DNA of 64,000 bases, from positions 54,306 to 118,305 of the forward strand of contig JAQUNI010000001.1 in NCBI GenBank assembly GCA_028717685.1, read 5' to 3'. How positions within the stretch are numbered: the first letter of the stretch is position 1; every line of letters begins with the position of its first letter. Position numbers and translations under genes: made by a program. The stretch comes from Patescibacteria group bacterium (GTDB lineage Bacteria; Patescibacteriota; JAQUNI01). Under the pieces are notes generated by a model. It saw only the letters and a program-made list of their open reading frames with translations, was not told the origin of the DNA and searched no databases. Below are positions 366-62,823 of the stretch, piece by piece.

Positions 366-436
<71 letters not shown>

Positions 437-440
437 AAAG

Positions 441-873
441 ACGAATTACGAAGTACGAATTATAGTTTTAGTAGTTTTAATGAGGCCATTGATCATTTTA
501 CTAAGTTCAATGGTTTGGGTAGCTACAGGGTCAAAATCTTTATTGCTCAAATAGTTTATATCTCTGGCAATTAACAACTGATTTTGAACCTCGGTTAAGG
601 ATCCTAAAGCGCGGCAATAAAACTGCATCTTCTCTTTATAAGAAGGTCTACTAAATCCTTCAGCAATATTAGAAGTGAAAGAAACGGCTGCTCTCCTTAA
701 TTGGCTAGTTAAACCAAAGATTTCTTCTCTGGGAAATTTTTGGGTGACTTTGTAGATCATCAAGACTAATTTGTGTCCTTCTTTCCAAACTCGCAAATCG
801 GTAAAAGATTTAATTTTATTTTGATCCATGAAAATTGTTTATCCGTGATTCGTAATTCGGAATTCGTGATTCG
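441..873 (-). mobile_element. inverted-repeat-bracketed four-helix-bundle cassette (IVS-like), copy 1
   Basis: ORF 446-829 is flanked by inverted gaattac-type heptads. 442-452 cgaattacgaa is the exact reverse complement of 849-859 ttcgtaattcg. The arms extend imperfectly to 441-460 and 844-873, and the left arm overlaps the last codons of the ORF. Confidence 0.5.
446..829 (-). CDS. four-helix-bundle protein (23S rRNA intervening-sequence protein / Avd-like family)
   Basis: 127-aa ORF with the family signature FP.EE.FGLTSQLRRAAVS..SNIAEG and an N-terminal F.DL.VW motif. It is a paralog of ORFs 59104-59463 and 61765-62124. Confidence 0.85.
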   Translation of the reverse strand: MDQNKIKSFTDLRVWKEGHKLVLMIYKVTQKFPREEIFGLTSQLRRAAVSFTSNIAEGFSRPSYKEKMQFYCRALGSLTEVQNQLLIARDINYLSNKDFDPVATQTIELSKMINGLIKTTKTIIRTS

Positions 874-2397
874 CTATTTCACAATCTCCCCTCCCAAAAC
901 CTCCAGTGCTTCTTTAGTTAAATTGTTATTCTGTTGCAATTCTACCTTTTCACATTGAATCTGCCATTTGCCACCTAAGATTTGGTCTAAAACCCCTTCC
1001 ACTGTTTTTTTATTGCGGGCTTGAGAAACCATATCCTTATGGAAATCCCGCGGGAAACCCAAAACTAAAGAGCCATCGCGAAAAGCGACTGGCTGGCAGA
1101 GTTTCAAGAAAGCGCACAAAGAATAATTTAAAGGCTCCACCGCCTTTAACACCTCATTCCATTTACCTACCACCTGTTCTAAATTCATTGTCGGCTTTTG
1201 ATATTCGGGTAAGGAAGGAAATGATGTTTTTTCTTCTTTTTCTTCCAGTTTCGGGCTTTGGATTTTTTCCCGCGCTTCCGCTACCTTACCCATTGCTTCA
1301 CTATATTCTATAATGGCTAACTCCAAAGACAATTGAGGAATTAAAGCCGCATCCAAACTATTCTTCGCGGCCATAAAAAGCCTCACTAAATAGGCTAAAC
1401 TTTTCAGAGAGAAATTTTGGGCGCGAGCAACTAATTCTTCTTTTTGGGCAGAAGAAAAAGAAAGCCCGGCGTGATCCAGCAAAGCGGGCTGAACCTTAGC
1501 CAACATCATTCTGCGGAGATAATCAACAAGCTCGTCCGTAAAATTAAATAAGTCTTGACCATTGGCGACAGTCTCATTTACTTTGCGAATAGCTTGCGCA
1601 CTGTCGCAAGAAGCCAGCATATTCACGAAATCTGATATTAAAGACCAATCGACCGTGCCTAAAAAATCAGCCACTTTGCGGAGCTTGAGCTCTTTTTTGG
1701 GCCAAGAGAGAATCTGACCTAAAACACCTTCGGCATCCCGCTCCCCGCCGTCCGCTTTGATGGCGATCAATCTCAAAATCTCGGGGTTTAAAACGCGCTT
1801 CTCCTCCCTTAAAATCCGCGTTAAGCGGTGTTCAATTTCAGCGACGGTCAATTTTTTAAAATCAAATCTCTGACAGCGCGAGAGAATCGTCTCGGGCACT
1901 TCGTGCACCTCTGTCGTCGCTAAAATGAAAAGAGTATGCGGAGGCGGCTCTTCCAAGGTTTTCAAAAGAGCGTTAAAGGCTTCCCGCGTCAACATATGCG
2001 CTTCATCAATAATATAAACTTTAAAACTATCTCTTTGGGGCGCGAAACGCACATTCTCACGGAGAGCGCGAATTTCATTGATGCCGCGGTTGGAGGCGGC
2101 GTCAATCTCAACCAAATCCAATGACCTGCCAGAGGTAATCTCCTGACAACTCGCGCAACGGTTGCAGGGTTCCACCTTTCCGAGCCTGCGTTCGCGCGCG
2201 CTTTTTTTGTTCTGGCAATTAATCGCCTTAGCGAGAATGCGCGCCACGGTGGTCTTGCCAATGCCGCGAGGACCCGCGAAAATATAAGCATGGGCAATCT
2301 TGCCCAAGCTTAACTCATTCTTTAAAGTTTGGATAATGGCAGTCTGTCCTTCCATTTCAGAAAATTTTTGAGGTCTGTATTTACGATATAAAGTCAT
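874..2397 (-). CDS. dnaX: DNA polymerase III subunit gamma/tau
   Basis: 507 aa. Walker A GPRGIGKTT, zinc module CNRCASCQEI, SRC motif LSRCQRF, and N-terminus MTLYRKYRPQKF typical of DnaX. Confidence 0.95.
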   Translation of the reverse strand: MTLYRKYRPQKFSEMEGQTAIIQTLKNELSLGKIAHAYIFAGPRGIGKTTVARILAKAINCQNKKSARERRLGKVEPCNRCASCQEITSGRSLDLVEIDAASNRGINEIRALRENVRFAPQRDSFKVYIIDEAHMLTREAFNALLKTLEEPPPHTLFILATTEVHEVPETILSRCQRFDFKKLTVAEIEHRLTRILREEKRVLNPEILRLIAIKADGGERDAEGVLGQILSWPKKELKLRKVADFLGTVDWSLISDFVNMLASCDSAQAIRKVNETVANGQDLFNFTDELVDYLRRMMLAKVQPALLDHAGLSFSSAQKEELVARAQNFSLKSLAYLVRLFMAAKNSLDAALIPQLSLELAIIEYSEAMGKVAEAREKIQSPKLEEKEEKTSFPSLPEYQKPTMNLEQVVGKWNEVLKAVEPLNYSLCAFLKLCQPVAFRDGSLVLGFPRDFHKDMVSQARNKKTVEGVLDQILGGKWQIQCEKVELQQNNNLTKEALEVLGGEIVK

Positions 2398-3873: not shown

Positions 3874-3922
3874 GACCCCACTAGAGAAACATGCCCCACA
3901 CGAATTTCTAACGGGGTTGACC
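3874..3922. repeat. CCCCGTTAGAGAA-type palindromic element (imperfect copy)
   Basis: gaccccactagagaaa...tttctaacggggttgacc. The arms ccccactagagaaa and tttctaacgggg are near-complementary. Confidence 0.6.
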
Positions 3923-5789: not shown

Positions 5790-5889
5790 AATAAAAGGCC
5801 CTTTTTTTTATCAATTTAATGAGGTAAAATAGGAGAAGGAATGAAATTATTCTACCTTGAATTACGAAATTCATTTGTCTATTAGCAGG

Positions 5890-5964
5890 CTATTCTCCCT
5901 CCCCCTCCAACTCCCCCTCGGGCAGGGGGAGTGTAATCAAGCTTATCGCTAATAGACGATACAT
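5890..5964. repeat. C-tract/G-tract hairpin repeat, copy A (also at 26135-26209)
   Basis: ctattctccctccccctcc..ctccccctcgggcagggggagtgtaatcaagct is shared almost exactly with 26135-26209. It contains the stem ctccccc/gggggag. Upstream, 5853-5880 also resembles 26048-26075. Confidence 0.8.
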
Positions 5965-11328: not shown

Positions 11329-11610
11329 ATGTTTGACTCTCTTAAAAATCTCAACCAATTAAGGCAACAAGCTAAAAAAATCAAAAAAGAATTAGGTAAA
11401 GAAATCTTGATCGGCACCGCGGAAGATGGCAAAATTCAAATCACGATGGACGGCAACCAAGAGGTGAAGGCTGTGCGCGTAGAACCGGATTTGCTTACTT
11501 CCGAAAACAAGGAAAAAATTGAAAAAGGCATCAAAGAAGCGATTACCCAATGCATTACCCAAATGCAAATGGCGATGGCAAGGAAGATGCAGAATGGAGG
11601 AATGTTTTAA
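11329..11610 (+). CDS. ybaB: YbaB/EbfC family nucleoid-associated protein
   Basis: 93 aa. The LKNLNQLRQQAKKIKKEL ... DGKIQITMDGNQEVKAVRVEPDLL pattern fits, as does the conserved position upstream of recR. Confidence 0.85.
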   Translation: MFDSLKNLNQLRQQAKKIKKELGKEILIGTAEDGKIQITMDGNQEVKAVRVEPDLLTSENKEKIEKGIKEAITQCITQMQMAMARKMQNGGMF

Positions 11611-11739
11611 GTTAAAAGTTAAAAGTGCAAAGTGAAAAGTTGAATTTAAAGTTTAAAGTTTCTTTTGTAAAAGCAGCTGCTCCGCAATAATTTTGTACTT
11701 TAAACCGCAATTTTGAACTTTGAATTTTTAACTTTGAAC
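11611..11739. repeat. heptamer-array hairpin (gttaaaa/gtgaaaa words)
   Basis: Left array 11611-11659 (gttaaaa gttaaaa gtgcaaa gtgaaaa ...). Right array 11697-11739 is its imperfect reverse complement, about 26/32 over the outer part. The loop of about 37 nt contains gcagctgc. Confidence 0.7.
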
Positions 11740-11746
11740 TAATTTT

Positions 11747-14041: not shown

Positions 14042-14142
14042 AAAAATTAAAAATGAAAAGTGAAAAATGTAAAATTAAATTGAAAACAATTTTTTCATTT
14101 TAGATTGTGATTTTTAATTTTTCATTTTATATTTTACGTTTT
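14042..14142. repeat. heptamer-array hairpin (atgaaaa/gtgaaaa/gtaaaat words)
   Basis: An A-rich array (attaaaa atgaaaa gtgaaaa atgtaaa ...) is followed by a T-rich complementary array (ttttcat, attttac ...). The pairing register is ambiguous because of low complexity. Confidence 0.55.
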
Positions 14143-14145
14143 CTA

Positions 14146-15735
14146 CTACACTTCCTTAAACAGCGCGCTGGAATGGGCTTTTGCGTCTTTGATATTTTCG
14201 GCTTTATGCAGCCGCGGTTTAGGCGTTACTAAAAAGCCCATATATTTTTTTAAGGCAAGTCGCGTCTGGGCGTCAATCGCGGGCACGCTCCCAAAAAAGA
14301 TGGTTACAACGGGCAGTAAAATCCACTGTAAAACCATATAAAAATACTCATAACGCCGATGCCGTTTGGGTCGCGGCGGCACTAAAACTGTGGAAATAAT
14401 CGCGGAAACGAAAATCCCAACCATAGAAAGGGACATTAAAAGCCGCGTCAAATAGGGAAGATTGCGCGCTAACACTGTTTCCCGAAAATCATCGCCTCCC
14501 AGAAATATGGGCATCCAACCGACAACCATTAAAATAATCGCCGTTACCGCCCAAGAATATTTTCCCTCTAACTCCCTGTAAATAATGCGCGTCTTTTTGA
14601 AAAAAGGAATGCCGCGCGTTCTTATGGAACGAAAAATCACATAAGGCAAATTTTCCACGCCCCAACCCCAACGCCTCCGCTGTTTATATTGATTTACAAT
14701 ACTTTCCCAAAAAGATCTGCCCAAAACCGTATCCATAGAGACCGGCATATAAAGAGGAATCACGCGATAGTTCCCGCGATAATGGAAAAAGCATTGATAG
14801 AAAATGCGCGAGTCTTCCGAGACGATATTCGTCTGCCAAAAACCGATTTCCACCGCGGTTTGGAAGCTCATCGCGTGGGAAGAAAAAGTTCCCATTCGCT
14901 CTGGACGCTCCTGCTCCATCATATGCCAAAAGGTAGTGGAAGCGCTAGCCACGCGCGCGAGAGCCGGCGCATCCCAAAGGTTGTTATTAAAGAAAGGAAC
15001 AGGTTGGTAGGAAGCGCGCGTCCGATTTGGTGTCGCAAGATAATGATAGGCAAGACAGGAAAAATATCTGGGGTGGACACAGGTATCGGCGTCAAAAACA
15101 GAAACGATCACATTGTCATAGGGGATACCCTCTCTATCAAGCCATTTTTGGACCTCGCGACCCGCCCAAGTCTCGTTAGAACCCTTGCCGGCAAGTTCGC
15201 CGATAATATCGCCAGGGTGCACCGTAACCATAAATTTATAAAACTTGCTGCCAAATTTTTCTTCTAGGGCACCTGCGTTTTTTAAACCGTTTTCACAATC
15301 CCTCTCTTCCACGCCGAGCACAACAATCATCTTCCCTGTAGGATAATCGGAATCCACTAGGGCTTTAAAAGTGGTTTCTAAAACCTCCAATTCTTCTTTA
15401 TAAGTAGGCAGGATAATCAAATGATAAAGCTCGCTCCATTTTTTATCACCCTGAAAGCTCTGGCATTTTGAGAACCAATCCGTTTTCAGATAGCGCTTCA
15501 TGCGAAAATAAGAAGCAACCTGGTGGATGCAAAGATAAGAAACGCGCAAGAGCCAGTGCAAATCAAAGGCAATAATAAAAATCGCCACGGAGACAGGCTC
15601 AATAAATGAGAATATAATACAAGAAAGAAGCGTGCCCCAAGCCAAAGCCGCAGGAAGAATTTCTAAACTGCGATAAAGAATCCGATCAGAGGGGCTATCT
15701 AAACTTGTGTAGTGAGCGATACCTTTAGGGTCCAT
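14146..15735 (-). CDS. processive family 2 glycosyltransferase with integral membrane domain
   Basis: 529 aa. VFDADT, SEDSR and QRRRWGWG (QxxRW) motifs, flanked by TM helices. Confidence 0.8.
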   Translation of the reverse strand: MDPKGIAHYTSLDSPSDRILYRSLEILPAALAWGTLLSCIIFSFIEPVSVAIFIIAFDLHWLLRVSYLCIHQVASYFRMKRYLKTDWFSKCQSFQGDKKWSELYHLIILPTYKEELEVLETTFKALVDSDYPTGKMIVVLGVEERDCENGLKNAGALEEKFGSKFYKFMVTVHPGDIIGELAGKGSNETWAGREVQKWLDREGIPYDNVIVSVFDADTCVHPRYFSCLAYHYLATPNRTRASYQPVPFFNNNLWDAPALARVASASTTFWHMMEQERPERMGTFSSHAMSFQTAVEIGFWQTNIVSEDSRIFYQCFFHYRGNYRVIPLYMPVSMDTVLGRSFWESIVNQYKQRRRWGWGVENLPYVIFRSIRTRGIPFFKKTRIIYRELEGKYSWAVTAIILMVVGWMPIFLGGDDFRETVLARNLPYLTRLLMSLSMVGIFVSAIISTVLVPPRPKRHRRYEYFYMVLQWILLPVVTIFFGSVPAIDAQTRLALKKYMGFLVTPKPRLHKAENIKDAKAHSSALFKEV

Positions 15736-15759
15736 AAAAAAAATGTAAAATTAAAAATG

Positions 15760-15795
15760 AAAAATGTAAAATAACATTTGAGATTTTACATTTTT
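15760..15795. repeat. perfect AT-rich hairpin (aaaaatgtaaaat / attttacattttt)
   Basis: 13-bp perfect stem (15760-15772 with 15783-15795) and a 10-nt loop. It uses the same words as 14042-14142, and its right arm overlaps the stop codon of ORF 15794-16207. Confidence 0.75.
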
Positions 15796-16207: not shown

Positions 16208-16374
16208 CTTGCTATAACTATATCTAAAAAAGCCTTAAAAGTAAACCCCGTTAGAGAATTTTGTCGTCCTTCGGTTCTTTGAGCTGAGCTCAAAATTATA
16301 TCCCTACTGTTCATAAATTAGATTGCTAAAATGTGGAATATTTTCTATAATAAATACGAAGTGACATCAGTAAA

Positions 16375-16405
16375 CCCCATTAGGGAACGAAGCTTTCTAG
16401 CAGGG
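16375..16405. repeat. CCCCGTTAGAGAA-type palindromic element (degenerate)
   Basis: ccccattagggaa cgaag ctttctagcaggg, flanked by gtaaa / gtaaa. A half site gtaaaccccgttagagaa lies at 16241-16258. Confidence 0.5.
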
Positions 16406-18019: not shown

Positions 18020-18064
18020 TTTTTTTACTATTTATCAAAATTTAATAATTTTCCCTGCGAAAAA

Positions 18065-18176
18065 TTTTCAATTTTCAATTTCTAATTTTTATTAAATTTT
18101 TAATCTTAAAATTTTTAAACATTTAAAATTGATTTATTGAAAATTTAATAAAAATTGAAAATTAGAAATTAAAAAT
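18065..18176. repeat. heptamer-array hairpin element, copy 1 (ttttcaa/tttctaa words)
   Basis: A 17-nt perfect inner stem (aatttttattaaatttt, about 18084-18100, against about 18141-18157) sits inside arms of about 36 nt. The element is about 91-93% identical by eye to 19932-20085. Confidence 0.75.
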
Positions 18177-18181
18177 TACTT

Positions 18182-19933
18182 ATGAAATGGCTCACTAAAT
18201 TTGCTCCTCCTCTTCTGATCACTATAATAGTTTTGGTTTCCTTTTTTTCGGTCCAAAAAGATTCCGCGATTATGGATGAGGTCGCCCATATCCCTGCTGG
18301 CTATTCCTACCTGAAATTTGGAGACTACCGCTTAAATCCCGAGCATCCCCCTTTAGCGAAAATGCTGTCCGCTCTTCCTCTCCTTTTCTTGCACCTCCAA
18401 TTCCCCTTAAACCATCCCACTTGGACAACCGACGTGAATGGTCAATGGGAAGCGGGATATCAGTTTTTATACCACCTTGGCAATGACGCGGATCAAATAC
18501 TCTTTTGGTCGCGCCTGCCGATTATCGCTCTTTTAATCTTGCTGGGGATCTATGTCTGGAAATGGGCAAAAGAGCTCCTGGGGGCAAAATGGGCGCTGGC
18601 GGTTCTGTTTTTGTATGCTTTCTCTCCCACGATTATTGCCCATAGCCACTATGTGACCACTGATTTAGCCGCAACATGTTTTATCTTTATCGCCTTTTAT
18701 TATTTTGTTCATTATTTAAAAAAACCGAGCCTTAAGAATACTCTTTTGGCTGGTCTTGCTCTGGGCTTAGCCGAGGTCGCTAAATTTTCGGCGGTTCTTC
18801 TTTTCCCGTGTTTTGTTCTCCTTGCCCTTATTCCCCTCCTTTTAAACAGGTCTCCCCAAACTTCTTGGCTCAAGCAAACAAAAAACCATATCGGCAAATT
18901 TATCCTCATTTGTTTGATCGCGCTCGGAGTAATCCTTATTGTCTATCAACCCGCGGTCTGGGCTTTCAATTTAGAAAAACAACAAGAATTAATCCGCGGT
19001 TCTATCGGACCGGAAAAAATTGAAAATATTGTGCTCGCTATAAGTAAAATCCCAGGAGCGCAAGGTTTTGCCCAATATATCTTGGGCGTTGTGATGGTCT
19101 TTGCCCGCGTGGGAGGCGGCAACACCAATTACTTCTTGGGTCAGGTTTCTAATCAAGGGTGGTGGTATTATTTCCCAACCTGTTTTTTTCTAAAAGAAAC
19201 AATTTCGGTCTTAATCTTAACAGGATTAGCTTTGCTTTTTGTGATTCGCAAATTTGTCATCAATCTCGTAAAAGACCGTCCGCGCAAATGGCTTCCTTGG
19301 TTTAGGGAATACGCGCTTTGTCATCTGGCGGAAATCTCAATGGTAGTTTTTATCATTGTTTATGGGGTAGTCAGCATGAGAGGCAAACTGAACTTAGGCG
19401 TCCGCCACATTATGGTCCTTTTCCCCTTTATCTATATTTTAATCATTAAAGAATTCAAACGGCGTATAGCAGAAACTGCCTATAAAAAACTTTTCACAGG
19501 AATATTGATTGTTCTCCTTGTTTGGGTTGGCGTGGAAGTCACGATAAATTATCCTTCGTACCTTGCTTATTATAACGAGCTTGGTGGCGGTCCGAAGAAT
19601 GGCTATAAATTGATCACAGATTCCAATCTGGACTGGGGGCAGGATTTAAGACGTATGGCGGAATGGGTGAACGCCAATCCTGAAATCTCAAAAATTAAAG
19701 TAGATTATTTTGGCGGCGGAGTGCCCTCTTATTATCTTGGCGATAAATATCAAGAATGGCATTCGCAAAATGGACCAACAACGGGTTGGATTGCTGTCAG
19801 CGCAAATTATTTTTCTGAAAGTATTTATCGCAAAGATTCCACCTTTGCCACCTCTTACTATTATCTAGAATTAAAAAAGCCCGAAAAAATCTTCGGGCAT
19901 TCCATATTTGTGTATTATATACCGGAGGAATAA
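18182..19933 (+). CDS. GT39-family phospholipid-carrier-dependent glycosyltransferase
   Basis: 583 aa, multi-TM. DEVAHIPAGYSYL ... NPEHPPLAKML is typical of the PMT_2 / GT39 family. Confidence 0.75.
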   Translation: MKWLTKFAPPLLITIIVLVSFFSVQKDSAIMDEVAHIPAGYSYLKFGDYRLNPEHPPLAKMLSALPLLFLHLQFPLNHPTWTTDVNGQWEAGYQFLYHLGNDADQILFWSRLPIIALLILLGIYVWKWAKELLGAKWALAVLFLYAFSPTIIAHSHYVTTDLAATCFIFIAFYYFVHYLKKPSLKNTLLAGLALGLAEVAKFSAVLLFPCFVLLALIPLLLNRSPQTSWLKQTKNHIGKFILICLIALGVILIVYQPAVWAFNLEKQQELIRGSIGPEKIENIVLAISKIPGAQGFAQYILGVVMVFARVGGGNTNYFLGQVSNQGWWYYFPTCFFLKETISVLILTGLALLFVIRKFVINLVKDRPRKWLPWFREYALCHLAEISMVVFIIVYGVVSMRGKLNLGVRHIMVLFPFIYILIIKEFKRRIAETAYKKLFTGILIVLLVWVGVEVTINYPSYLAYYNELGGGPKNGYKLITDSNLDWGQDLRRMAEWVNANPEISKIKVDYFGGGVPSYYLGDKYQEWHSQNGPTTGWIAVSANYFSESIYRKDSTFATSYYYLELKKPEKIFGHSIFVYYIPEE

Positions 19934-20085
19934 ATTTCTAATTTTCAATTTCTAATTTCTATTAAATTTTTAATTTTAAAATTTTCAAACACCATTAGAA
20001 ATGAAAAATTTCTAGACGGGATAAACCTTTTAAAAATTAATTCATTAGAAATTTAATAAAAATTGAAAATTAGAAATTGAAAATT
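19932..20085. repeat. heptamer-array hairpin element, copy 2 (direct repeat of 18065-18176)
   Basis: It has the same arms as copy 1. Its loop carries about 50 extra nt, including a degenerate ttagaaat...atttctag palindrome (19991-20020). Confidence 0.75.
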
Positions 20086-21136
20086 ACTTATAATACACCA
20101 ATCCCTGCACCCTTAAATCAATATAGTATTTAATTTCTTTATTATTTTTCCCAATATCCTCTTTGAAAACTAAGGTTAAAGCTTCAAGTTGGTTTTGCAA
20201 GCTCTGTCTAGTGTCAAAAAATATTTGATAACCTTTGTCCGTTTTTATATACAAGTCGCGGGAATCAGAAATCGGCACAATGAATTCTTGGATTTTCAAA
20301 TCCGTCTTTAGAGATAACAAATCCCGCACTTGAAAAAGGAAACTTAAAAAAGAGGGGTCTAAAATCTGCTCGCGCGGTTCTACTTTTTTAAAAGACTGAT
20401 CATAAAGAACGGGTAATCCCTTTTCCCATACCGTTTCCTCGGGAATTTCCTCGCCGATTATTCCTTCCGCATCTAAAAAGTGATAAAGAATAGTGGGATT
20501 TTCGGGATAGGAGGTTGGAGTCAAGATGGCTTGTGACTCTTTATCTTTAACTTCCCCGATTTCCTCCCTACTCGTAGAATCACTGGCAAAAGCTTCAGGG
20601 GGTAAAAATAAATCCTGCGGCGCGCCATTTGCCCAAATCGCTTTCGGCTCCCTCTCGGTAATGATAATTTTTAAAACATCGGGGAATTCTTTTTTAATGT
20701 CTATTTTCTCAATCTGGGCAAAATGGGCATAGATTACGCTGCTTAAATGCTTTTTACCCGCAATAATCAAATTTTCTTTGGGAAAAATAAAGGCGCGTCC
20801 CTTTAAATTCTCGCGCGCCAAATTTTCCACATCTTCACCCTTGACATTAACATTGCCTACCACTACAATCTCCTTGATTTGCCAGAACGGAAAAAAGAAT
20901 AAAAAATAAACAAGCGAACCTAACGCAAGCAAAAAAAGGAAAAAGGCAATTTTCCGCTGCAAATGTCCCGAAGCCTCGCGGACGCGAAAACGAGGAGTCG
21001 CGAGATAAATCCTCGGGCTCGCTAAGGTCCGCTTTTTCCTAAAAAACCCGCGTTTCCACTCCACTTTCCTTTTGCGGGATTTTTGTTTATACGGGTTTAA
21101 GTATAATTTTTTGCGGCTGGGTTTATGAGAAAACAC
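20084..21136 (-). CDS. FtsQ/DivIB-like cell division protein (POTRA domain)
   Basis: 350 aa with a basic N-tail, a single TM, then the POTRA-like WQIKEIVVVGNVNV...LKIIITEREPKAIW. The ORF-track start is GTG. Confidence 0.65.
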   Translation of the reverse strand: MFSHKPSRKKLYLNPYKQKSRKRKVEWKRGFFRKKRTLASPRIYLATPRFRVREASGHLQRKIAFFLFLLALGSLVYFLFFFPFWQIKEIVVVGNVNVKGEDVENLARENLKGRAFIFPKENLIIAGKKHLSSVIYAHFAQIEKIDIKKEFPDVLKIIITEREPKAIWANGAPQDLFLPPEAFASDSTSREEIGEVKDKESQAILTPTSYPENPTILYHFLDAEGIIGEEIPEETVWEKGLPVLYDQSFKKVEPREQILDPSFLSFLFQVRDLLSLKTDLKIQEFIVPISDSRDLYIKTDKGYQIFFDTRQSLQNQLEALTLVFKEDIGKNNKEIKYYIDLRVQGLVYYK

Positions 21137-22469: not shown

Positions 22470-22485
22470 AAGCTACGGTTTTTTT
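22459..22485 (+). terminator. Rho-independent terminator
   Basis: Stem ccgtag / ctacgg with loop actaaaag containing the stop codon, followed by seven T. Confidence 0.8.
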
Positions 22486-22492
22486 ATTCTAC

Positions 22493-22639
22493 TAGACCCT
22501 TCTCCGCCTCCCGCTTCCCAAGGGGAGAGGAGTTATTATCCCCTCCTTTCCAAGGAGGGGCTAGGGGAGGTTCTGAGTCAGAACCCCACCCATCCTCCCC
22601 TTGGAAAGGGGAGGTGGGGGGAGAAAGGAAGGGGTCTTT
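22493..22639. repeat. C-tract/G-tract nested-hairpin element
   Basis: It is bounded by tagacccttc ... gaaggggtct. Internal stems are cccctcc/ggagggg, ggttctga g tcagaacc (22569-22585) and cctcccc/ggggagg. It abuts the serS stop codon. Confidence 0.7.
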
Positions 22640-23950: not shown

Positions 23951-26068
23951 TTAAAGTCCTAAATTTTGAGATATATCTTGCATCGCCCGGAGGCCGATTT
24001 TCACAAACTCTTCTAAAGATAAACCAAAGGATTCACAAGAAGTAATTACTTCTCGCCGCGCGCCTTGGGCGAAGGATTTTTCTTTAAATCTCTTTAAGAT
24101 AGACTGCATTGATAAATCAGATAATTTTTTTGATGGCAAAACCAAGGTGGCAGCCACAATCAAACCAGTCAAAGGATCCACAGCGTAAATCGCTTTTTCC
24201 ATCAAGGTTTTGCGAGGCGCGCCGCATTGATCATTATGCGCCTTAATGCCAACCAAAATTACGGGATGCACTCCTTCCTGCTCTAAAATCCCTACGGTGG
24301 TCGGACCGTGTTTTTCCGGCGCTTCGCGATAATCAAACATTTCCATATCTAAGTCGTGCAGAAGACCAGTAAGCCCCCAGACTTCCTTATTCTTTTGAAA
24401 ATGCTTGGCAAGAGCAGCCATTATCGCTTCCGTTGCCAACATATGTTTGCGCGAATTTTCATTCTTCACATATTGGCAAACCAAATCCCAAGCTTTGGCG
24501 CGCGTAATCCCTAGGTTCTCTGCCTCTTCGTTTTGAGCGGGCGCTTTTGTCGCTGGACAGACCTTTTGCGTATTTAATGGTTTCATTAAAGGAAAAAATA
24601 CTGCCTCACGGATGCTCGGAGCGTTGGTTAAAAACATTACCAGACGATCAATACCCATGCCCCAACCCGCGATCGGCGGCATTCCGTATTCCATTGCCCG
24701 CACATAATCTTCATCCATCATATGCGCCTCCGCGTCTCCCGCTTCCCGCATTTCAACCTGTTCTTCAAAACGCCTACGCTGCTCCAGAGGGTCAACTAAC
24801 TCAGAATAAGCATTGACTAATTCCTGCCCTAAAACCACTAACTGAAAACGATCCACAATCTTTGGATTCTGGTCATTCCTGCGCGCCAAGGGCGATAATT
24901 CAATGGGATGACCAGTTAGAAAAAGGGGACCTTTAATTTTCGGCCGCGAAACCTTTTTGTATAATTGATCTACTAAACCCCCAAAGCCTAATTTGCCAAA
25001 GCCTTCAATTTCAATTTTTTTCTTCCGCATTTCCTTTCTAAGTTTCTCCGCGGTATCAGCCTTGTTAATATCAATACCGCAATCTTCCAAAATCAAGCTT
25101 CCAAAATTTTTTCTCTGCCAAGGAGGAGTAAAATCTATTTTCTGACCTTGATAGTCAATCTGCAAGCTCCCAAAAACGCGGTTTAAGAGATAAACCAACA
25201 TTTCTTCAGTTTGCGCCATTAAAAATTCATAATTTTTGTAAGCCCAATAAAATTCCAGCATCGTAAAATCTTGAAGATGGGCGGTGTCCATTCCTTCATT
25301 GCGAAAAACCCGCGCCATCTCAAAAACCTTTTCCAAACCGCCTACAATTAAGCGCTTCAAATATGTTTCCGGCGCAATCCTTAAATACAAGGGAATTTGC
25401 AGGGCTTCGTGCTCTGTAATGAAAGGACGCGCGAGCGCGCCCGAAGCCTTGGTTTGAAGCACTGGCGTCTCCACCTCCAAAAAACCCCTCTCCGTCAGAA
25501 AATCACGCAGGGCATCGCAGATCTCCGCGCGCTTTTTGAAACGCTCACGCACTTCCGGATGAACAAGCAGATCCAAATAACGTTCCCGAAATCTAATCTC
25601 TTGATTAGAGAGACCTTTCCATTTTTCCGGCAAAGGACGGATGGATTTAGCGAGAATTTTATAATCGGAAACGAGGAGGGTTCTTTCCCCTTTCCGAGTG
25701 ACAAATACGGTTCCTTGGAGTTCAATAAAGTCGCCAATGTCAAAATTTTTAAAAAATTTGTATTTCTCCGGACCTGAAATGTCTTTTTTGAGATAAGCTT
25801 GGATTCTGCCGCTTTCATCATCAATATGGATGAAGGTAGAGCCGCCGTGTTCGCGAATGTTGCGTATGCGCCCCGCGACCACAATCTCGCCTTTTTCTTT
25901 TTCTATGGCTTCAAAATCATCCAATATTTTTTTGACTGTATGCGTCCGACGCGAAGAATCAGGGTAAGGATTGATTTCGGCTTTTAAAATTTTATTCAAT
26001 TTTTCTTTGCGATTTTGGATTAAATCTTTAAGCATATATTTTATTATACCTTGAGTTACGAAATTCAT
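23951..26068 (-). CDS. lysS: lysine--tRNA ligase (class II) fused to a C-terminal HD-domain hydrolase
   Basis: 705 aa. OB fold plus class II core (FRNEGMDTAHLQDFTMLE, GWGMGIDRLVM), then about 190 extra residues with H...HD...D (HMLATEA, LLHDLD, HND). The true start may be Met12 (26035). Confidence 0.9.
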   Translation of the reverse strand: MNFVTQGIIKYMLKDLIQNRKEKLNKILKAEINPYPDSSRRTHTVKKILDDFEAIEKEKGEIVVAGRIRNIREHGGSTFIHIDDESGRIQAYLKKDISGPEKYKFFKNFDIGDFIELQGTVFVTRKGERTLLVSDYKILAKSIRPLPEKWKGLSNQEIRFRERYLDLLVHPEVRERFKKRAEICDALRDFLTERGFLEVETPVLQTKASGALARPFITEHEALQIPLYLRIAPETYLKRLIVGGLEKVFEMARVFRNEGMDTAHLQDFTMLEFYWAYKNYEFLMAQTEEMLVYLLNRVFGSLQIDYQGQKIDFTPPWQRKNFGSLILEDCGIDINKADTAEKLRKEMRKKKIEIEGFGKLGFGGLVDQLYKKVSRPKIKGPLFLTGHPIELSPLARRNDQNPKIVDRFQLVVLGQELVNAYSELVDPLEQRRRFEEQVEMREAGDAEAHMMDEDYVRAMEYGMPPIAGWGMGIDRLVMFLTNAPSIREAVFFPLMKPLNTQKVCPATKAPAQNEEAENLGITRAKAWDLVCQYVKNENSRKHMLATEAIMAALAKHFQKNKEVWGLTGLLHDLDMEMFDYREAPEKHGPTTVGILEQEGVHPVILVGIKAHNDQCGAPRKTLMEKAIYAVDPLTGLIVAATLVLPSKKLSDLSMQSILKRFKEKSFAQGARREVITSCESFGLSLEEFVKIGLRAMQDISQNLGL

Positions 26069-26134: not shown

Positions 26135-26209
26135 CTATTCTCCCTCCCCCTCCGCCTCCCCCTCGGGCAGGGGGAGTGTAATCAAGCTCCTCGTTAATAG
26201 ATGACATAT
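26135..26209. repeat. C-tract/G-tract hairpin repeat, copy B (see 5890-5964)
   Basis: About 88% identical by eye to 5890-5964 over 75 nt. It lies in the region upstream of lysS, on the opposite strand relative to the gene. Confidence 0.8.
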
Positions 26210-31410: not shown

Positions 31411-31414
31411 AAAA

Positions 31415-31519
31415 AAGCGTAAAGTGAAAAGTGTAAAGCGTAAAGTGTAAAAAATAATAACCCAGTATTTTAAGTTGCACGCTGTTCATTTTATGCTTTA
31501 CGCTTTAAGTTTTAAGCTT
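31415..31519. repeat. heptamer-array hairpin (gtaaagc/gtaaagt words)
   Basis: 31433-31452 gtaaagcgtaaagtgtaaaa pairs with 31489-31508 ttttatgctttacgctttaa at 17/20 positions. The loop is 36 nt. It lies between the mreB stop and the mreC start. Confidence 0.7.
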
Positions 31520-32559
31520 TATTTATACTGCGTGTCCACCAACACCTCGCGCAAGAGGTCTAAATTTTCTAAGACCATGCCCGCGCCCCGAACAACACAA
31601 GTCAAGGGATCATTGGCGATCTGGACGGGCATCTGCGTCTCGCGTGCGACAAGACGGTCAAGACCGCGCAGGAGCGCGCCTCCGCCCGCCAAAATAATAC
31701 CCCGATCCATAATATCCGCGACAAGTTCAGGAGGGGTTTCCTCAATCGTTCCTTTAATATTAGAAACTAGATTTCTGATGGAACGCGATAAGGCTTCGCG
31801 CACCTGACTATCATTAATAATCACCTCCTTTGGCAGACCCGTGACGAGGTCCCGACCGCGCAACTTTGCTTCCAAGGGTTTCTTCAAAGGCCAAGCCGAG
31901 CCAATGGCGATTTTAATTTCTTCGGCTTTCCTTTCGCCGATTAATAAATTAAAGTGGTCGCGGGAATATTGAATAACATTCTCGTTTAATTCATCTCCCG
32001 CAATCCGCAACGATCGCGCCACCACGCCCCCGCCCAGAGAAATTACCGCCATCTCGGTTGTGCCGCCGCCGATATCCACAATCATACTTCCCGAAGCATC
32101 TTGCACGGGAAGGCGGGAACCGATGGCCGCGGCCATCGGTTCTTCAATCAAGAAAGCTTGCCTCGCGCCAGCCGTGCGCGTGGCATCCTCCACCGCTCGC
32201 CGCTCCACTTCGGTGCAGCCCGAAGGAATGCCAATCACTACCCTAGGTCGCGGAATAAGAGTGAACATTCCTTGGTGCACCTTCTGAATAAAATATTTTA
32301 ACATCTGCTCGGTCACTTCAAAATCAGAAATCACCCCGTCCACAAGTGGACGAGTGGCTACAATATGCATCGGCGTTCTTCCCACCATCTTTTTCGCTTC
32401 ATTGCCAATTGCCAAAACCTGACCCGTCTTCGTATTCATAGCCACGACCGAAGGCTCATTGATGACGATGCCTTTCCCACGCACATACACTAAGGTATTC
32501 GCTGTCCCTAAATCAATGCCGATGTCGCGGGAAAAAGCGCCTAAAAAACGATTAAACAT
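31519..32559 (-). CDS. mreB: rod shape-determining protein MreB
   Basis: 346 aa. GIDLGTANTLVYV, DIGGGTTE and GGGALLRGLD. Confidence 0.95.
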   Translation of the reverse strand: MFNRFLGAFSRDIGIDLGTANTLVYVRGKGIVINEPSVVAMNTKTGQVLAIGNEAKKMVGRTPMHIVATRPLVDGVISDFEVTEQMLKYFIQKVHQGMFTLIPRPRVVIGIPSGCTEVERRAVEDATRTAGARQAFLIEEPMAAAIGSRLPVQDASGSMIVDIGGGTTEMAVISLGGGVVARSLRIAGDELNENVIQYSRDHFNLLIGERKAEEIKIAIGSAWPLKKPLEAKLRGRDLVTGLPKEVIINDSQVREALSRSIRNLVSNIKGTIEETPPELVADIMDRGIILAGGGALLRGLDRLVARETQMPVQIANDPLTCVVRGAGMVLENLDLLREVLVDTQYK

Positions 32560-32562
32560 AAT

Positions 32563-32696
32563 TTGGAATTAGGAATAGAGAATAATGAATAAGGAATAAG
32601 GAATTCTGAAAGTTACGCAATTCCTAAAAAAGGAGTAAGCAGAAATCTAAGGCAAACGCTTAACTCCTGCTTCCTAATTCCTGATTCCTGATTCCC
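32563..32696. repeat. heptamer-array hairpin (ggaatta/ggaataa versus attcctg/attccta)
   Basis: 32587-32605 gaataaggaataaggaatt pairs with 32676-32694 at 17/19 positions. The central core of about 50 nt (32626-32678) is about 80% similar to 27836-27890. Confidence 0.65.
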
Positions 32697-34187: not shown

Positions 34188-34212
34188 ATGGATGCAAAAA
34201 ACTTGTAGTGAA

Positions 34213-34243
34213 CCCCATTAGAGAATGAAGTTCTCTAACGGGG
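34213..34243. repeat. CCCCGTTAGAGAA-type palindromic element
   Basis: ccccattagagaa tgaag ttctctaacgggg has one mismatch in 13 bp and is flanked by gtgaa / gtaaa. Confidence 0.75.
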
Positions 34244-34258
34244 TAAATTTATTGAATA

Positions 34259-35365: not shown

Positions 35366-35470
35366 CTAATTGACCTAATGTCTAATTTCTAAATAATTCC
35401 CAATGTCTAATAACCAATGACTAAAGAAAAATTTTAGACATTAGACATCAGTTATTAGTTAGGTCAATAT
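35366..35470. repeat. heptamer-array hairpin (ctaatgt/ctaattt words)
   Basis: The outer 10-bp perfect stem is attgacctaa (35369-35378) with ttaggtcaat (35457-35466). The inner arms are built from tgtctaa / ttagaca words. Confidence 0.65.
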
Positions 35471-35480: not shown

Positions 35481-36056
35481 TTAATGAGGCATGATTTCCT
35501 TTTCTTTCTTCTCGCTCATCATTTCTAATTTCAGGGTATATTCCTTGGTCTTCTGATCCAATTCCTCTAAACCACGAAACTTTTCATCCTCGGACATAGC
35601 TCCTTGTTTGGTCGCTTCTTGAACCTCTTCCCTGACCTTGTCACGCCAATGCCGCAAAGCAATCCGACTCTGCTCCAGTTTTTCCCTCAAAACCTTGATG
35701 AGCTGCTCCCTCCTCTCCTCCGTAAGATCAGGGAGTTTAATCCGAATAGCGTCCCCTTCTATGCTCGGATTTAAACCTAAGGGGGAACTCGCAATAGCCT
35801 TTTCCACATCCTTAATCACATTTTGATCCCAAGGTCTCACCACTAATATATTCGGTTCCGGAGCGGAAATGCTGCCTAGCTCTCGAATCTGCATCCGCGA
35901 GCCGTAAACCTCTACGACTAAATTTTCCACCAGAGAAGGATTTGCCCTGCCCGTCCGTATCCCCGCCAATTCTTCACCAAAATGCTTTAATGCCGCATCA
36001 AACTCGGGAGCGTATTTTTTAAAAATTGACTCAAACATATAGTAAGTAAACCCCAT
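35481..36056 (-). CDS. frr: ribosome recycling factor
   Basis: 191 aa with IRTGRANPSLVENL. The start may be Met7. Confidence 0.95.
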   Translation of the reverse strand: MGFTYYMFESIFKKYAPEFDAALKHFGEELAGIRTGRANPSLVENLVVEVYGSRMQIRELGSISAPEPNILVVRPWDQNVIKDVEKAIASSPLGLNPSIEGDAIRIKLPDLTEERREQLIKVLREKLEQSRIALRHWRDKVREEVQEATKQGAMSEDEKFRGLEELDQKTKEYTLKLEMMSEKKEKEIMPH

Positions 36057-36165
36057 TAGAGAACTTCTTTTCTCTAACCCCGTTTGGAAATATGTTTCTA
36101 ACGGGGTCAGCGTCTATATTTTTCCCACCACCGACTTTGTCGGCGGCTTTCTCTAACGGGGTAAA
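36046..36165. repeat. cluster of CCCCGTTAGAGAA-type palindromic elements
   Basis: gtaaaccccattagagaa..ttctctaacccc, ccccgtttggaaatatgtttctaacgggg, and a terminal ctttctctaacggggtaaa. That makes three partial or complete copies in 120 nt. Confidence 0.7.
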
Positions 36166-46994: not shown

Positions 46995-46999
46995 AAATT

Positions 47000-47097
47000 C
47001 GGAATTAGGAATAGGGAATTATGAATCATGAATCAGAAATTAGGAAGCGAGGAAAAAAGCTGTTCATCTTTATTCCTGATTCCTGATTCCCACTTCC
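47000..47097. repeat. heptamer-array hairpin in the rpsK/rpsD spacer (ggaatta/gaatcat versus attcctg)
   Basis: The left purine-rich array and right array ctttattcctgattcctgattccc are imperfectly complementary, about 16/20. The core gaaaaaagctgttcatctttattcct is shared with 47598-47635. Confidence 0.65.
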
Positions 47098-48036: not shown

Positions 48037-48130
48037 GGAATTGTGAATTATGAATTATGAATTATGAAATTTGACAGCACATTCTTAATTTTAGATTTTC
48101 GCGATTCGTAATTCGTAATTCTAGATTCGG
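48037..48130. repeat. paired heptamer arrays in the rpmJ/rpsM spacer (tgaatta x3 versus gtaattc x2)
   Basis: 48037-48071 reads ggaattg tgaatta tgaatta tgaatta tgaaatt. 48101-48130 reads gcgattc gtaattc gtaattc tagattc. They are complementary except for one position per word. Confidence 0.6.
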
Positions 48131-50736: not shown

Positions 50737-51096
50737 CTAAAAATTTTTCTTTTTATATTTTTTTAAAAGTTGATTTAATATTTTCAATAAAGGTTTTCGC
50801 CAATCATCTTCTAACTGAGATTTGATGAGTTGCACTAATATCTTATCTCCTGAAGTCAGATGCAATTTTTCCAACTTTTTACATTGAGCTAAAATTTCAA
50901 AATCAATATCGGTGGCTAAAACATATTTGCTTTTCTCTAATGGGGTTAACTGAAACTGCTTTGTCAATCTCTGTTTTCTTCTTTGAAGTAATTCCTGATA
51001 ATGCCTATCTTCTTTTAAAACTTTTCTTAATTTATATCCCTGATATCCTAGATTCAGATAAAAATCTTCAATCGCTTGCATTGATTTCTCTTGCAT
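50737..51096 (-). CDS. hypothetical helical protein
   Basis: 119 aa, predicted all-alpha by composition. It is bracketed by heptamer arrays (50687-50736 and 51097-51118). No family motif recognised. Confidence 0.55.
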   Translation of the reverse strand: MQEKSMQAIEDFYLNLGYQGYKLRKVLKEDRHYQELLQRRKQRLTKQFQLTPLEKSKYVLATDIDFEILAQCKKLEKLHLTSGDKILVQLIKSQLEDDWRKPLLKILNQLLKKYKKKNF

Positions 51097-57312: not shown

Positions 57313-59061
57313 ATGAAGGACAAATTAAAAAACGATACAGTCAATTCCAACGGGGTGAAATTTGACGACAAAACAATAAAGAAGATTCTCTTAAAAGGGA
57401 ACTATATTACTGAAGAAGATGTTAAGAACGCGGATGATTTTGCCACAACGCACCAAGTGTCATTCATAGGGTATCTGCTCCAAGAAAATCTCATCACCAA
57501 GGACCTCTTGGGGCAGGCGATTGCCGAATCGTTCAAGGTTCCCTACGCTGACTTAAATTCAGCACCACCCGCACCTCTGCAGGTGCAAAAAATTCCGGAG
57601 GAGACCGCGAAAAAATATCACGCGGTTATTTTCGCTGAAGAAAAAAACAAAACCGTAGTCGCCACCGATAATCCAGAAGATCCAACACTCCTGCCGGAAT
57701 TAGAAAAGCTGTTTGTCGGCAGGAGGTTGAGCATTGTCTATTCGCTGACCGAGGACATCAACGCGAGCTTTGTGCATTATCAAAAGCCGCTTGAAACCCG
57801 CTTCTCTAAGATTATTGAGAGCAAAGGGCGAGTCGCGCCAGAGCTTTTGGAAGAAATTTTTGATGACGCGCTCGTATATCATGCCTCCGACATCCATTTT
57901 GAACCCAGGCAGAAAGATGTGCTTGTGCGGTTTCGCATTGACGGCGTTTTACAAGAAACCGGCAGGATCCCCAAAGAATATTACGAAAATATTCTTAATC
58001 GCATCAAGGTGCAAAGCGGTTTGCGCATTGATGAACACTTTGCCGCGCAAGACGGTTCGCTCCGGTATGAACCCTCCTCCTTTAAAGCTTCCTCCTACGC
58101 TAACGCTCCAGCGGGCAAAAAGGATAGCGTTGTTGTTGACCTTAGAACCTCAGTTGTCCCCACTGTTGAAGGAGAAAAAGTGGCATTGCGCGTACTCTCG
58201 GCATATGTGCAAGGATTTTCTCTTGGTGATCTTGGTCTTTCGCCGGCACATCAGCAGATACTTGAGCAAGCCGCCACAAAACCATTTGGCATGATTCTCG
58301 TAGCAGGTCCCACTGGTTCCGGAAAAACCACTACGCTTTACGCACTTTTGAAACTTGTAAATAGCCCAGAGGTGAACATCACCACTATTGAGGACCCGGT
58401 GGAGTACAGGGTGCTCGGCGTGAATCAAATTCAAATCAATCCTCTAACAAATCTCACTTTTGCCAAAGGACTGCGTTCTATCGTCCGCCAAGACCCGGAT
58501 ATTATTCTGGTCGGCGAGATTCGCGACGAAGAAACAGCAGAAATCGCCGTAAATGCGGCACTCACCGGCCATCTTCTCTACTCCACATTTCACGCCAACG
58601 ATGCCGCTACCGCCATTCCTCGGCTTCTGGATATGGGCATTGAACCGTTTCTTTTGGCTTCCACGCTTGAGGTTATTGTCGCCCAGCGACTCGTGCGTAA
58701 AATTTGCGAACATTGCCGGCATAGTGTTACCAAATCGGCAAATGATTGGAAGACGCCTCAGCTTCGGTCAGTTATGCCATATCTTTCCAAAAAGTCGATC
58801 ACGCTCTATGAAGGGAAGAAGTGCGAGATGTGCGGCTATACGGGGTACAAAGGACGAACTGCTATTTTTGAATTCATCCAAATCACTCCGGAGATGCGGA
58901 ATCTCATCTTACACTCCCCGTCAACTAAAGAAATCTGGCAACTCGCCAGTAAGGATGGTTCAAAAACACTTTTTGAAGACGGCATTGAAAAAGTTAAGAC
59001 TGGAGTAACCACAATAGAAGAGCTGCTTCGCGTCGCCGAACCGCCGCAGAAGAGTGGGTAG
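57313..59061 (+). CDS. pilB: type IV pilus assembly ATPase (GspE/PilB family)
   Basis: 582 aa. Walker A GPTGSGKTT, Walker B DPDIILVGEIRD, His box TGHLLYSTFH, and a tetracysteine CEHC...CEMC. Confidence 0.9.
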   Translation: MKDKLKNDTVNSNGVKFDDKTIKKILLKGNYITEEDVKNADDFATTHQVSFIGYLLQENLITKDLLGQAIAESFKVPYADLNSAPPAPLQVQKIPEETAKKYHAVIFAEEKNKTVVATDNPEDPTLLPELEKLFVGRRLSIVYSLTEDINASFVHYQKPLETRFSKIIESKGRVAPELLEEIFDDALVYHASDIHFEPRQKDVLVRFRIDGVLQETGRIPKEYYENILNRIKVQSGLRIDEHFAAQDGSLRYEPSSFKASSYANAPAGKKDSVVVDLRTSVVPTVEGEKVALRVLSAYVQGFSLGDLGLSPAHQQILEQAATKPFGMILVAGPTGSGKTTTLYALLKLVNSPEVNITTIEDPVEYRVLGVNQIQINPLTNLTFAKGLRSIVRQDPDIILVGEIRDEETAEIAVNAALTGHLLYSTFHANDAATAIPRLLDMGIEPFLLASTLEVIVAQRLVRKICEHCRHSVTKSANDWKTPQLRSVMPYLSKKSITLYEGKKCEMCGYTGYKGRTAIFEFIQITPEMRNLILHSPSTKEIWQLASKDGSKTLFEDGIEKVKTGVTTIEELLRVAEPPQKSG

Positions 59062-59498
59062 TAGGATTAGTTGGTAGTTTGTAGTGAGTAGTTAGTAGTA
59101 AATATGAAAATTGAATCGTACGAAAATTTAATTGTGTGGCAAAAGTCAATGGATCTGGTGATTGCTGTTTATGCATTGACAGAAAAATTTCCAAAAGAAG
59201 AACTATACGGTTTAACTTCACAAATGCGCCGCGCAACTGTTTCAGTTCCTTCCAATATTGCGGAAGGTAGTAGGCGTGGTTCTCGAAAAAATTTTAGAAA
59301 TTTTTTACTCAATGCGTATGGTTCCAGTGCAGAGCTTGGGACTCAGATCAAAATCGCGAAACGGCTTTCATACGGAAAAACCAAAAATTATGAGCAAGCG
59401 GATGCACTGCTTGATGAAGTAATGCGCATGTTAGACAAATTGACGTATGGGCTCAAAGAATAAAAGTCTACAAACTACCAACTACAAACTACAAACTA
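59059..59498 (+). mobile_element. hairpin-loop four-helix-bundle cassette (IVS-like), copy 2
   Basis: 59068-59084 tagttggtagtttgtag is the exact reverse complement of 59468-59484 ctacaaactaccaacta (17 bp). ORF 59104-59463 fills the loop. Confidence 0.65.
59104..59463 (+). CDS. four-helix-bundle protein (23S rRNA intervening-sequence protein / Avd-like family)
   Basis: 119 aa. YENLIVWQKSMDL, FPKEELYGLTSQMRRATVSVPSNIAEG. It differs from ORF 61765-62124 at 10 of 119 residues. Confidence 0.9.
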   Translation: MKIESYENLIVWQKSMDLVIAVYALTEKFPKEELYGLTSQMRRATVSVPSNIAEGSRRGSRKNFRNFLLNAYGSSAELGTQIKIAKRLSYGKTKNYEQADALLDEVMRMLDKLTYGLKE

Positions 59499-60886: not shown

Positions 60887-60892
60887 ACAAAA

Positions 60893-60998
60893 CTAACAAA
60901 TGACACATAACATCTGACACATGACATTTGACACATATGAAACAAAAAAAATTATAGGAAAATAAAAGGGCATCGTCAGATGTTAGGTATCAGATGTT
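60893..60998. repeat. heptamer-array hairpin (ctgacac/atgacat words)
   Basis: The left array is ctaacaa atgacac ataacat ctgacac atgacat ttgacac. 60909-60932 pairs with 60975-60998 at about 19/24 positions. Confidence 0.65.
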
Positions 60999-61013
60999 CC
61001 AAAAGGGTTTACC

Positions 61014-62746: not shown

Positions 62747-62755
62747 TTTAGGGAT

Positions 62756-62814: not shown

Positions 62815-62823
62815 CAAACTAAC

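Follow-up and report, generated by a model that had tools for sequence, protein, structure and literature searches.

A four-helix-bundle gene cassette with inverted heptamer arms between dnaX and a tRNA-Gln gene in a Patescibacteria genome, and the same layout across its gene family

The element described here is a small gene cassette that lies between dnaX and a tRNA-Gln gene in a 64-kb stretch of DNA (the window, G+C 42%) from a Patescibacteria group bacterium (contig JAQUNI010000001.1). Along the minus strand, a GtrA-like gene (2441-2923) is followed by dnaX (874-2397, named from its homologues, the nearest of which bears the label Candidatus Doudnabacteria), an open reading frame (ORF) encoding 127 amino acids (446-829) and tRNA-Gln(UUG) (364-436, found by ARAGORN and matched by Rfam RF00005 with 69.5 bits). 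No terminator-like sites were found between dnaX, the ORF and the tRNA gene, and in the predicted transcription unit the cassette is wedged between these two co-directional neighbours. Arrays of seven-nucleotide repeats (heptamers) stand on both sides of dnaX: one at 841-874, which forms the 5' arm of the cassette, and an (ATTCNNN)n array at 2399-2450 on the same strand, reported by Tandem Repeats Finder (TRF) between the GtrA-like gene and the start of dnaX, which is complementary to it. Across the whole window the tRNA was the sole match in an Rfam scan, with no rRNA, and PADLOC returned no defence system.

The product of the ORF is a member of the S23p (23S_rRNA_IVP) family by curated profile cut-offs and over the full domain: it matches PF05635 with 127.3 bits against a cut-off of 33.8 (E 3e-37, domain positions 2-106 of 106) and TIGR02436 with 122 bits against a cut-off of 24. 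By sequence similarity it also resembles the structure of XCC0516 (PDB 2gsc, E 1e-19), a homologue that forms a pentameric ring (PMC4990558). An earlier note on this DNA had placed the ORF in one family with two genes of a pilus locus farther along the window, 59104-59463 and 61753-62124, and the profile matches bear this out, as does the 42% identity to both. The protein is basic (isoelectric point 9.8) and under purifying selection, with a ratio of non-synonymous to synonymous substitution rates (dN/dS) of 0.11-0.24, and of 0.14-0.24 when set against 94%-identical orthologues. Pfam and NCBIfam gave PF05635-type matches only, and neither they nor PADLOC showed a catalytic or transposase domain. 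The protein is related to the pentameric S23p/Avd proteins and probably binds nucleic acid.

The gene is enclosed by inverted repeats built of heptamers. Positions 442-452 (CGAATTACGAA) are the exact reverse complement of 849-859, as the earlier note had observed, and around this core the repeats extend to 20-21 nt at 86-90% complementarity (441-462 and 841-874). TRF reports period-7 tandem arrays at 441-459 and 844-873, and the flank-to-flank Smith-Waterman score of 30 was reached by none of 300 dinucleotide-type shuffles of the flanks (13.7 +/- 2.3, maximum 23). In the sense of the transcript, the 5' arm holds about 4.3 heptamers (CGAATCA CGAATTC CGAATTA CGAATCA), follows the dnaX stop codon directly and stops 11 nt short of the ATG (841 vs 829). 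The 3' arm holds about three (AATTCGT ACTTCGT AATTCGT), which encode the final codons IIRTS and the stop codon, and it ends 4-5 nt from the tRNA gene on the same strand, so that the overlap and the close spacing claimed for it both stand. The two arms are paired in the minimum-free-energy and centroid folds alike. At up to one mismatch the arm word occurs 8 times in the window, compared with 1.7 expected. The orthologue in the related locus L089 has two more heptamers in its 3' arm (+14 nt) and an ORF that still encodes 127 amino acids.

The two pilus-locus genes sit in cassettes of the same build on the plus strand. The first (59061-59498) consists of a GTAG-type heptamer arm at 59061-59099, the ORF at 59104-59463 and an inverted arm at 59468-59498; the second (61729-62153) has arms at 61729-61760 and 62135-62153 and the ORF at 61753-62124. 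Both have a flank score of 43, which in the case of the first was reached by 0 of 300 shuffles. All three family genes of the window (3/3) have inverted heptamer arms, and when every gene in it was scored for inverted flanks these three were all in the top six. The others in that group are dnaX (score 33, the fifth highest in the window) and two long genes, 14146-15735 and 18182-19933, that lie between hairpins of one common word family. Strong period-7 arrays number 20 in the window, as against 0-2 for each of the other periods from 4 to 12.

Our data on this organism's own genome are those of the window, and the census of the family was therefore made across species rather than genome-wide. 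It took one genome per species and 80 loci, mostly labelled as candidate phyla radiation (CPR) with some records labelled otherwise, of which 78 were scored. With inverted flanks defined by a score of at least 24, they are present at 62 of the 78 family genes and at 30 of 596 other genes of the same loci (5%); several of these 30 are further four-helix-bundle paralogues, and others belong to the PD-(D/E)XK_3, GIY-YIG, Y1_Tnp and DUF5680 families. At almost all loci an array before the ORF ends in or beside the ATG (e.g. ..GAATTATG, ..GTAGTATG and ..AGAATATG), and a reverse-complement array after the ORF starts at or within its final codons: 0-5 nt separate the 5' array from the ATG in 38 of 55 loci, and the 3' array begins within the ORF in 42 of 67. 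Period 7 fits best in 92 of 95 flank arrays, the length of an array is 3-5 units (median about 4), and each word combines a constant 4-nt core (GAAT, GTAT or GTAG) with 3 variable nucleotides. The phase of the array is matched to the ATG, and the conserved C-terminal tail (IIH/RxS) and the stop codon are array-encoded. Arms are matched to their own partners, with a median arm-against-arm score of 34 within a locus and 17 between different loci, and the own partner stands at the top of its row in 18 of 78 loci (1 expected). The gene upstream is co-oriented with the family gene at 69 of 75 loci (background 73%) and the median gaps to the neighbours are 33 nt upstream and 27 nt downstream; the arms therefore fill the intergenic space.

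The surroundings of the gene are variable. The 80 homologues, of 57-72% identity, lie in 80 different contexts in 80 species; dnaX is absent as a neighbour from all 80 of these related loci, and adjacency to a tRNA gene was not seen as a general trait in the 60 loci scanned for it. Some cassette insertions are old: inspection of the flanks suggests that four Moraniibacteriota loci (L021, L027, L045 and L046) share one insertion site, at a POR locus, where the cassette is stable across species. Shine-Dalgarno 4-mers precede 15% of the cassette ATGs and 14% of other genes, and are uninformative in these genomes.

The layout is not confined to CPR. A tblastn search of plasmids gave 30 records, mostly cyanobacterial, together with Riemerella, and among the fourteen inspected, most of 13 non-CPR copies have inverted heptamer arms (those of Nostoc, Calothrix, Picosynechococcus, Leptolyngbya, Geminocystis, Anabaena and Riemerella). 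Their words, CAGGAGT, AGTAGGG, GGGTGTA, GGAGATA, AAGGGAA, AGGTGAC and GGTTTAA, are unrelated to those of CPR. A metagenome scan seeded with the Riemerella protein alone gave 80 Bacteroidota-type loci, of which 70 were scored: inverted arms flank 57 of the 70 family genes and 8 of 119 other genes (7%), the words are of the GGTTTCA/GGTTCAA type (GGTTYMA), and the upstream gene is co-oriented in 65 of 69. Arrays longer than 10 units occur in Pseudanabaena and at Bacteroidota-type loci. Almost without exception, the arm upstream of the ATG is G- or purine-rich on the coding strand. A copy in Azospirillum has a heptamer 3' arm in a host sequence that looks, by eye alone, like a 23S rRNA gene.

These surveys give strong support to the generality that the earlier note had proposed for the association between a four-helix-bundle gene and inverted heptamer arms, and they agree with its claim that the association is not tied to one arm sequence. 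The layout is kept across CPR, Bacteroidota-type and cyanobacterial copies despite unrelated words, and the arms are specific to the PF05635 gene family. What persists, as the word varies by locus and clade, is the period of 7, the G-rich arm ahead of the ATG and the arm that carries the stop codon.

The conserved surroundings of dnaX in closer relatives allow the history of the junction to be followed. The order CorA, ORF232, GtrA, dnaX, tRNA-Gln is kept, and what differs is the content between the dnaX stop codon and tRNA-Gln. The window shares the cassette with L088 and L089 (four-helix-bundle proteins 94% identical). In L090, whose dnaX is 89% identical to that of the window, the same place is taken by an empty hairpin in which arrays of GAATTAT GAATCAG GAATTGT GAATCAT and further units are followed, across a 13-nt loop, by arrays in ATTC; in L094 (dnaX 69% identical) it is an empty hairpin of GAATCAA words; in L092 (70%) there are 7 nt only; and in L091 (82%) a GIY-YIG gene interrupts the tRNA gene, whose 5' part is duplicated over 21 nt. 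The (ATTCNNN)n array upstream of dnaX is common to the window, L090 and L091 and absent from L092, a close relative that lacks all arrays at these junctions. When the filled junctions of the window, L090 and L094 are compared with the bare one of L092, no target-site duplication is seen, and the cassette does not qualify as a classical transposon with terminal inverted repeats or as a miniature inverted-repeat transposable element, for which such a duplication is the mark. Cassettes have been gained and lost at an orthologous junction, and heptamer copy number has changed between close relatives. The junction series thus implies that arrays, empty hairpins and cassettes come and go on the time-scale of a genus and are dispensable.

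Cargo-free hairpins are also frequent in the window itself, where some 15 intergenic regions form hairpins by folding, with imperfect arrays of heptamers as arms and a word of its own in each. Three of these share words with cassettes and most use other words. The hairpin at 48038-48121 (arms 48038-48068 and 48104-48121, 35-nt loop) is built of the GAATTAT/ATTCGTA words of the dnaX cassette, and its loop can be read as a 15-codon mini-ORF with its ATG flush with one arm and its TAA in the other; those at 62756-62855 (TRF and fold) and 63921-63985 use the GTAG/CTAC words of the pilus-locus cassettes. Others lie at 11609-11740, 14042-14142, 15739-15793, 18063-18178, 19932-20086, 31414-31521, 32560-32695, 35395-35470, 46996-47090, 60896-61005 and 63385-63477, with words that include AAGTTAA, AAAAATG, AATTTTC, AAAGTGT, AATTAGG, TTAGACA and TGACACA; a common word family is found in the hairpins on either side of 14146-15735 and 18182-19933. 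In 854 kb there are 358 period-7 arrays, against 17-58 for other periods, and the distance between paired arrays is bimodal, the loops being either short or about 310-450 nt in length. The earlier note had listed three places where the word of the dnaX cassette recurs without cargo. One of them, 48101-48130, holds up as an arm of the 48038-48121 hairpin; 5861-5875 is a lone word rather than an array and adjoins a different repeat family, and 26055-26068 has no match at up to one mismatch. The latter two looked alike because of a nearby G+C-rich element of 31 nt, CCCCCTCGGGCAGGGGGAGTGTAATCAAGCT, which is identical in the two intergenic regions (5913-5943 and 26158-26188), is preceded by CCCTCC repeats and is unrelated to the heptamer arms. 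Another G+C-rich hairpin region lies at 22470-22639.

Several further observations concern the neighbourhoods of these elements. In pilin and type IV pilus loci, four-helix-bundle cassettes and heptamer arrays are clustered and interleaved with pilin-like genes (57313-64000 in the window; 2366-4349 in L049 and 7886-8272 in L017, two unrelated CPR loci). Many flavobacterial contigs have the cassette at one conserved site (L085, L108, L111, L112, L114, L119, L120 and L124), where by eye both the 3' end of the gene before it, whose Riemerella annotation reads iron-sulfur cluster assembly accessory protein, and the start of the next gene are conserved; on cyanobacterial plasmids (L086, L101 and L098) the cassette is flanked by cas6 and cas4 or by cas10 and cmr3. 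Other small genes are found in inverted-repeat brackets in CPR (L005 4500-4877, L027 5221-5625, L051 146-535, L018 4450-4914, L016 7750-8187 and L068 2145-2402), and the families among them are PD-(D/E)XK_3, DUF5680, IS200-like Y1_Tnp and GIY-YIG. The PD-(D/E)XK_3 arms have core repeats (CGCGGAA, GCTAAT) at spacings other than 7, and the DUF5680 arms are heptamers that end in ATG. GIY-YIG genes of 86-94 amino acids lie beside tRNA-Gln in L091 (4590-4956), L092 (4784-5044, preceded by a 19-nt tandem repeat) and L094 (4774-5058), and small selfish genes seem to have a hot spot at the dnaX/tRNA-Gln junction. L090 has an extra nested hairpin (2700-2900), made of the TTCTAAT and GACCAAT heptamer families, between its GtrA-like gene and dnaX; the window lacks it. 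A separate palindromic repeat family, ACCCCGTTAGAGAA / TTCTCTAACGGGGT, forms REP-like hairpins (REP, repetitive extragenic palindrome) in the window, with 10 matches against 0.3 expected (3875-3917, 16245-16387, 34212-34244, 36050-36162 and 50933-50946), and recurs in L006 (9560-9900), where the motif lies on both sides of an 86-aa ORF.

The closest precedent for the cassette is the intervening sequence (IVS) of 23S rRNA genes. In Coxiella burnetii an S23p ORF lies in the loop of a 28-bp stem with terminal inverted repeats that is excised by RNase III, whose 5' cut falls where the first of three tandem GACAGAT heptamers begins; with one degenerate unit, these stand directly before the ATG, and the number of heptamers varies by strain (PMC4990558). 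Its authors took the heptamers as a local detail. S23p-bearing IVSs also occur in Leptospira, and the sites known for IVSs are helices 9, 25 or 45 of the 23S rRNA (PMC4990558). The window cassette agrees with these elements in having the same protein family in the loop of a terminal-inverted-repeat stem, tandem heptamers right before the ATG in copy numbers that vary between strains, an ORF in the sense of the host transcript and a sporadic distribution among species. It differs in lying between dnaX and a tRNA gene rather than in a 23S rRNA helix, in having heptamer arrays as both arms, in the company of many cargo-free heptamer hairpins and in an ORF subject to purifying selection, unlike that of Coxiella, which is in decay and apparently goes untranslated (PMC4990558). 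Because it lacks the defining rRNA location, the element is best filed as one that would work like an IVS but is not one.

Since the Coxiella IVS is built alike and is cut by RNase III, we read the cassette, with a probability that we put on balance on the side of this reading, as an IVS-type stem-loop gene cassette in the dnaX-tRNA transcription unit that would be cut by RNase III by analogy. Specifically, an apparently promoterless PF05635 (S23p) gene, whose start and stop codons lie within, or directly against, a pair of inverted arrays with 3-5 heptamers each, would be co-transcribed with dnaX and the tRNA; the arms would pair in the RNA into a stem of 17-28 bp that hides the ATG; and RNase III may then cut the stem as in the Coxiella IVS, freeing the ORF RNA and separating the flanking transcripts. 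Such a separation would explain why the insertion is tolerated within operons. The period also has a consequence for the reading frame: because 7 = 1 modulo 3, an ATG or TAA within an array recurs in each of the three frames, so that slippage or insertion would never destroy the start or the stop, and the L089 variant with its additional 14 nt and unchanged ORF fits this argument.

A number of results weigh against this reading. The frame argument holds for any period not divisible by 3, which leaves period 7 itself unexplained, and RNase III cleavage is established solely for the rRNA-borne homologues. The predicted stem of the window cassette has just 11+6 bp with an internal loop, and the whole transcript has a folding z-score of -1.5. 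Mismatches between arms show no G:U excess on the sense strand (46 G:U against 66 A:C in 71 loci), which means that there is no signature of selection at the RNA level and that complementarity could be kept at the DNA level; and a permutation test found no signal beyond chance that the order of units in one arm is mirrored by the other. Finally, arrays are direct and not inverted in Pseudanabaena, in Gemmatirosa and in 10 of 70 Bacteroidota-type loci, and the stem model leaves these unexplained.

The mismatch spectrum leads to the alternative of a mobile system acting on DNA, akin to REP elements and the REP-associated tyrosine transposases (RAYT, TnpA-REP), in which the four-helix-bundle protein recognises or propagates the arrays, cassettes are autonomous, and cargo-free hairpins are deletion derivatives mobilised or maintained in trans. 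We think this rather unlikely, for all that a symmetric spectrum (G:U about equal to A:C) is what DNA palindromes predict. It would account for the three hairpins that share word families with nearby cassettes, for the empty hairpins of L090 and L094 at the very junction that holds the window cassette, for the mini-ORFs of two hairpin loops, which take both their ATG and their stop codon from the arms, and for the dispersal of homologues over different contexts in all 80 species. Word preference tracks the protein clade (GAAT/GTAG in CPR, GGTTYMA in the Bacteroidota type), the proteins are basic with a ring-forming homologue, and PD-(D/E)XK_3 genes have their own arms of a different periodicity. 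However, no catalytic or transposase domain was found, no target-site duplication is seen at the junction, words differ between cassettes whose proteins are 60-70% identical, many window hairpin words are never met beside a four-helix-bundle gene, and insertions such as that at the Moraniibacteriota POR locus are stable across species. Arrays far longer than five units speak against one subunit per heptamer, and a strict model of five heptamers per pentamer is contradicted by Bacteroidota-type and Pseudanabaena arrays that exceed 10 units. The earlier note had likened the cassette to REP elements that bracket RAYT genes, and the likeness stands only for the geometry, a small gene in inverted repeats with related cargo-free hairpins across intergenic regions; it fails in that the protein is a four-helix bundle with no match to the Y1/HUH transposases of IS200/IS605 type, that locus-specific tandem heptamers take the place of one conserved palindrome per genome, and that no target-site duplication is seen. 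The 23S rRNA IVS with its S23p ORF is the closer precedent.

It could also be that the hairpins came first, as slippage-born host elements between cistrons that serve mRNA processing or stability, and that small selfish genes (four-helix-bundle, PD-(D/E)XK_3, GIY-YIG and DUF5680) lodge in their loops because insertion there is harmless. The abundance of cargo-free hairpins and of period-7 arrays speaks for this, as do the bracketing of ordinary genes (dnaX, 14146-15735 and 18182-19933), the conservation in relatives of the array upstream of dnaX, the several unrelated small gene families in similar brackets and the bimodal gap between paired arrays. We nevertheless judge it improbable: the junctions are precise and conserved, with the ATG in phase and the array-encoded tail and stop codon, which random lodging would not yield; period 7 is tied to four-helix-bundle cargo while PD-(D/E)XK_3 arms are spaced otherwise; and the lack of any arrays at the same junctions in L092 shows them to be dispensable to the host. 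Neither this explanation nor a DNA-level system accounts for a period of seven. That the gene is the accessory gene (Avd) of a diversity-generating retroelement is very improbable. The protein is a distant homologue of bAvd, which has the same fold family, is basic and forms a pentamer, and it has weak similarity to PF22296 (29 bits), NF033474 (27.5 bits) and PHROG 3206 ('Avd protein of DGR'), but the scores lie under the curated cut-offs of 40 and 80 bits (27.5 against 80 for NF033474), no reverse transcriptase adjoins the gene, which has dnaX, a GtrA-like gene and a tRNA gene around it, and in 80 other species the gene lies among unrelated housekeeping genes.

Intergenic heptamer repeats of cyanobacteria, the short tandemly repeated repetitive (STRR) sequences, have reportedly been known since 1990 and are said to go back to Mazel 1990 and to Jackman and Mulligan 1995. 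They resemble the arrays described here in being intergenic tandem heptamers of variable sequence and persistent structure, as do the TAACTGA repeats of Beggiatoaceae, Cyanobacteria and Bacteroidetes (PMC4679880). Both occur in the same phyla in which PF05635 genes have heptamer arms, and they differ in that the searchable papers draw no link to PF05635 genes and in that the host here belongs to CPR. Likewise, we found no description in the open-access literature of heptamer arms as a general trait of the PF05635/TIGR02436 family, and earlier ones are possible elsewhere.

Across 160 loci, from no fewer than three phyla, the arms keep their period but not their sequence, which together with the specificity for one gene family points to a mechanistic link, and suggests that heptamers are a hallmark of this gene family in rRNA and mRNA operons alike. 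A decidedly speculative extension, to which we give little weight, is that PF05635 proteins are trans-acting partners of heptamer arrays, with a basic pentameric ring that binds them and perhaps generates or spreads them, so that gene cassettes would be autonomous and the cargo-free hairpins of CPR, Bacteroidota and cyanobacteria (STRR-like) their non-autonomous derivatives. If this is true, the partnership would be a REP/RAYT-like system based on a non-transposase protein and would account for IVS ORFs and heptamer repeats together. Two puzzles are joined here, namely the function of the S23p ORF in 23S rRNA intervening sequences and the origin of intergenic heptamer repeats. For the IVS-type reading that we favour, it would follow that such elements are not restricted to rRNA and occur also in dnaX-tRNA, pilus, suf, cas and POR operons, which bears on genome annotation and on how operon expression is read in CPR genomes.

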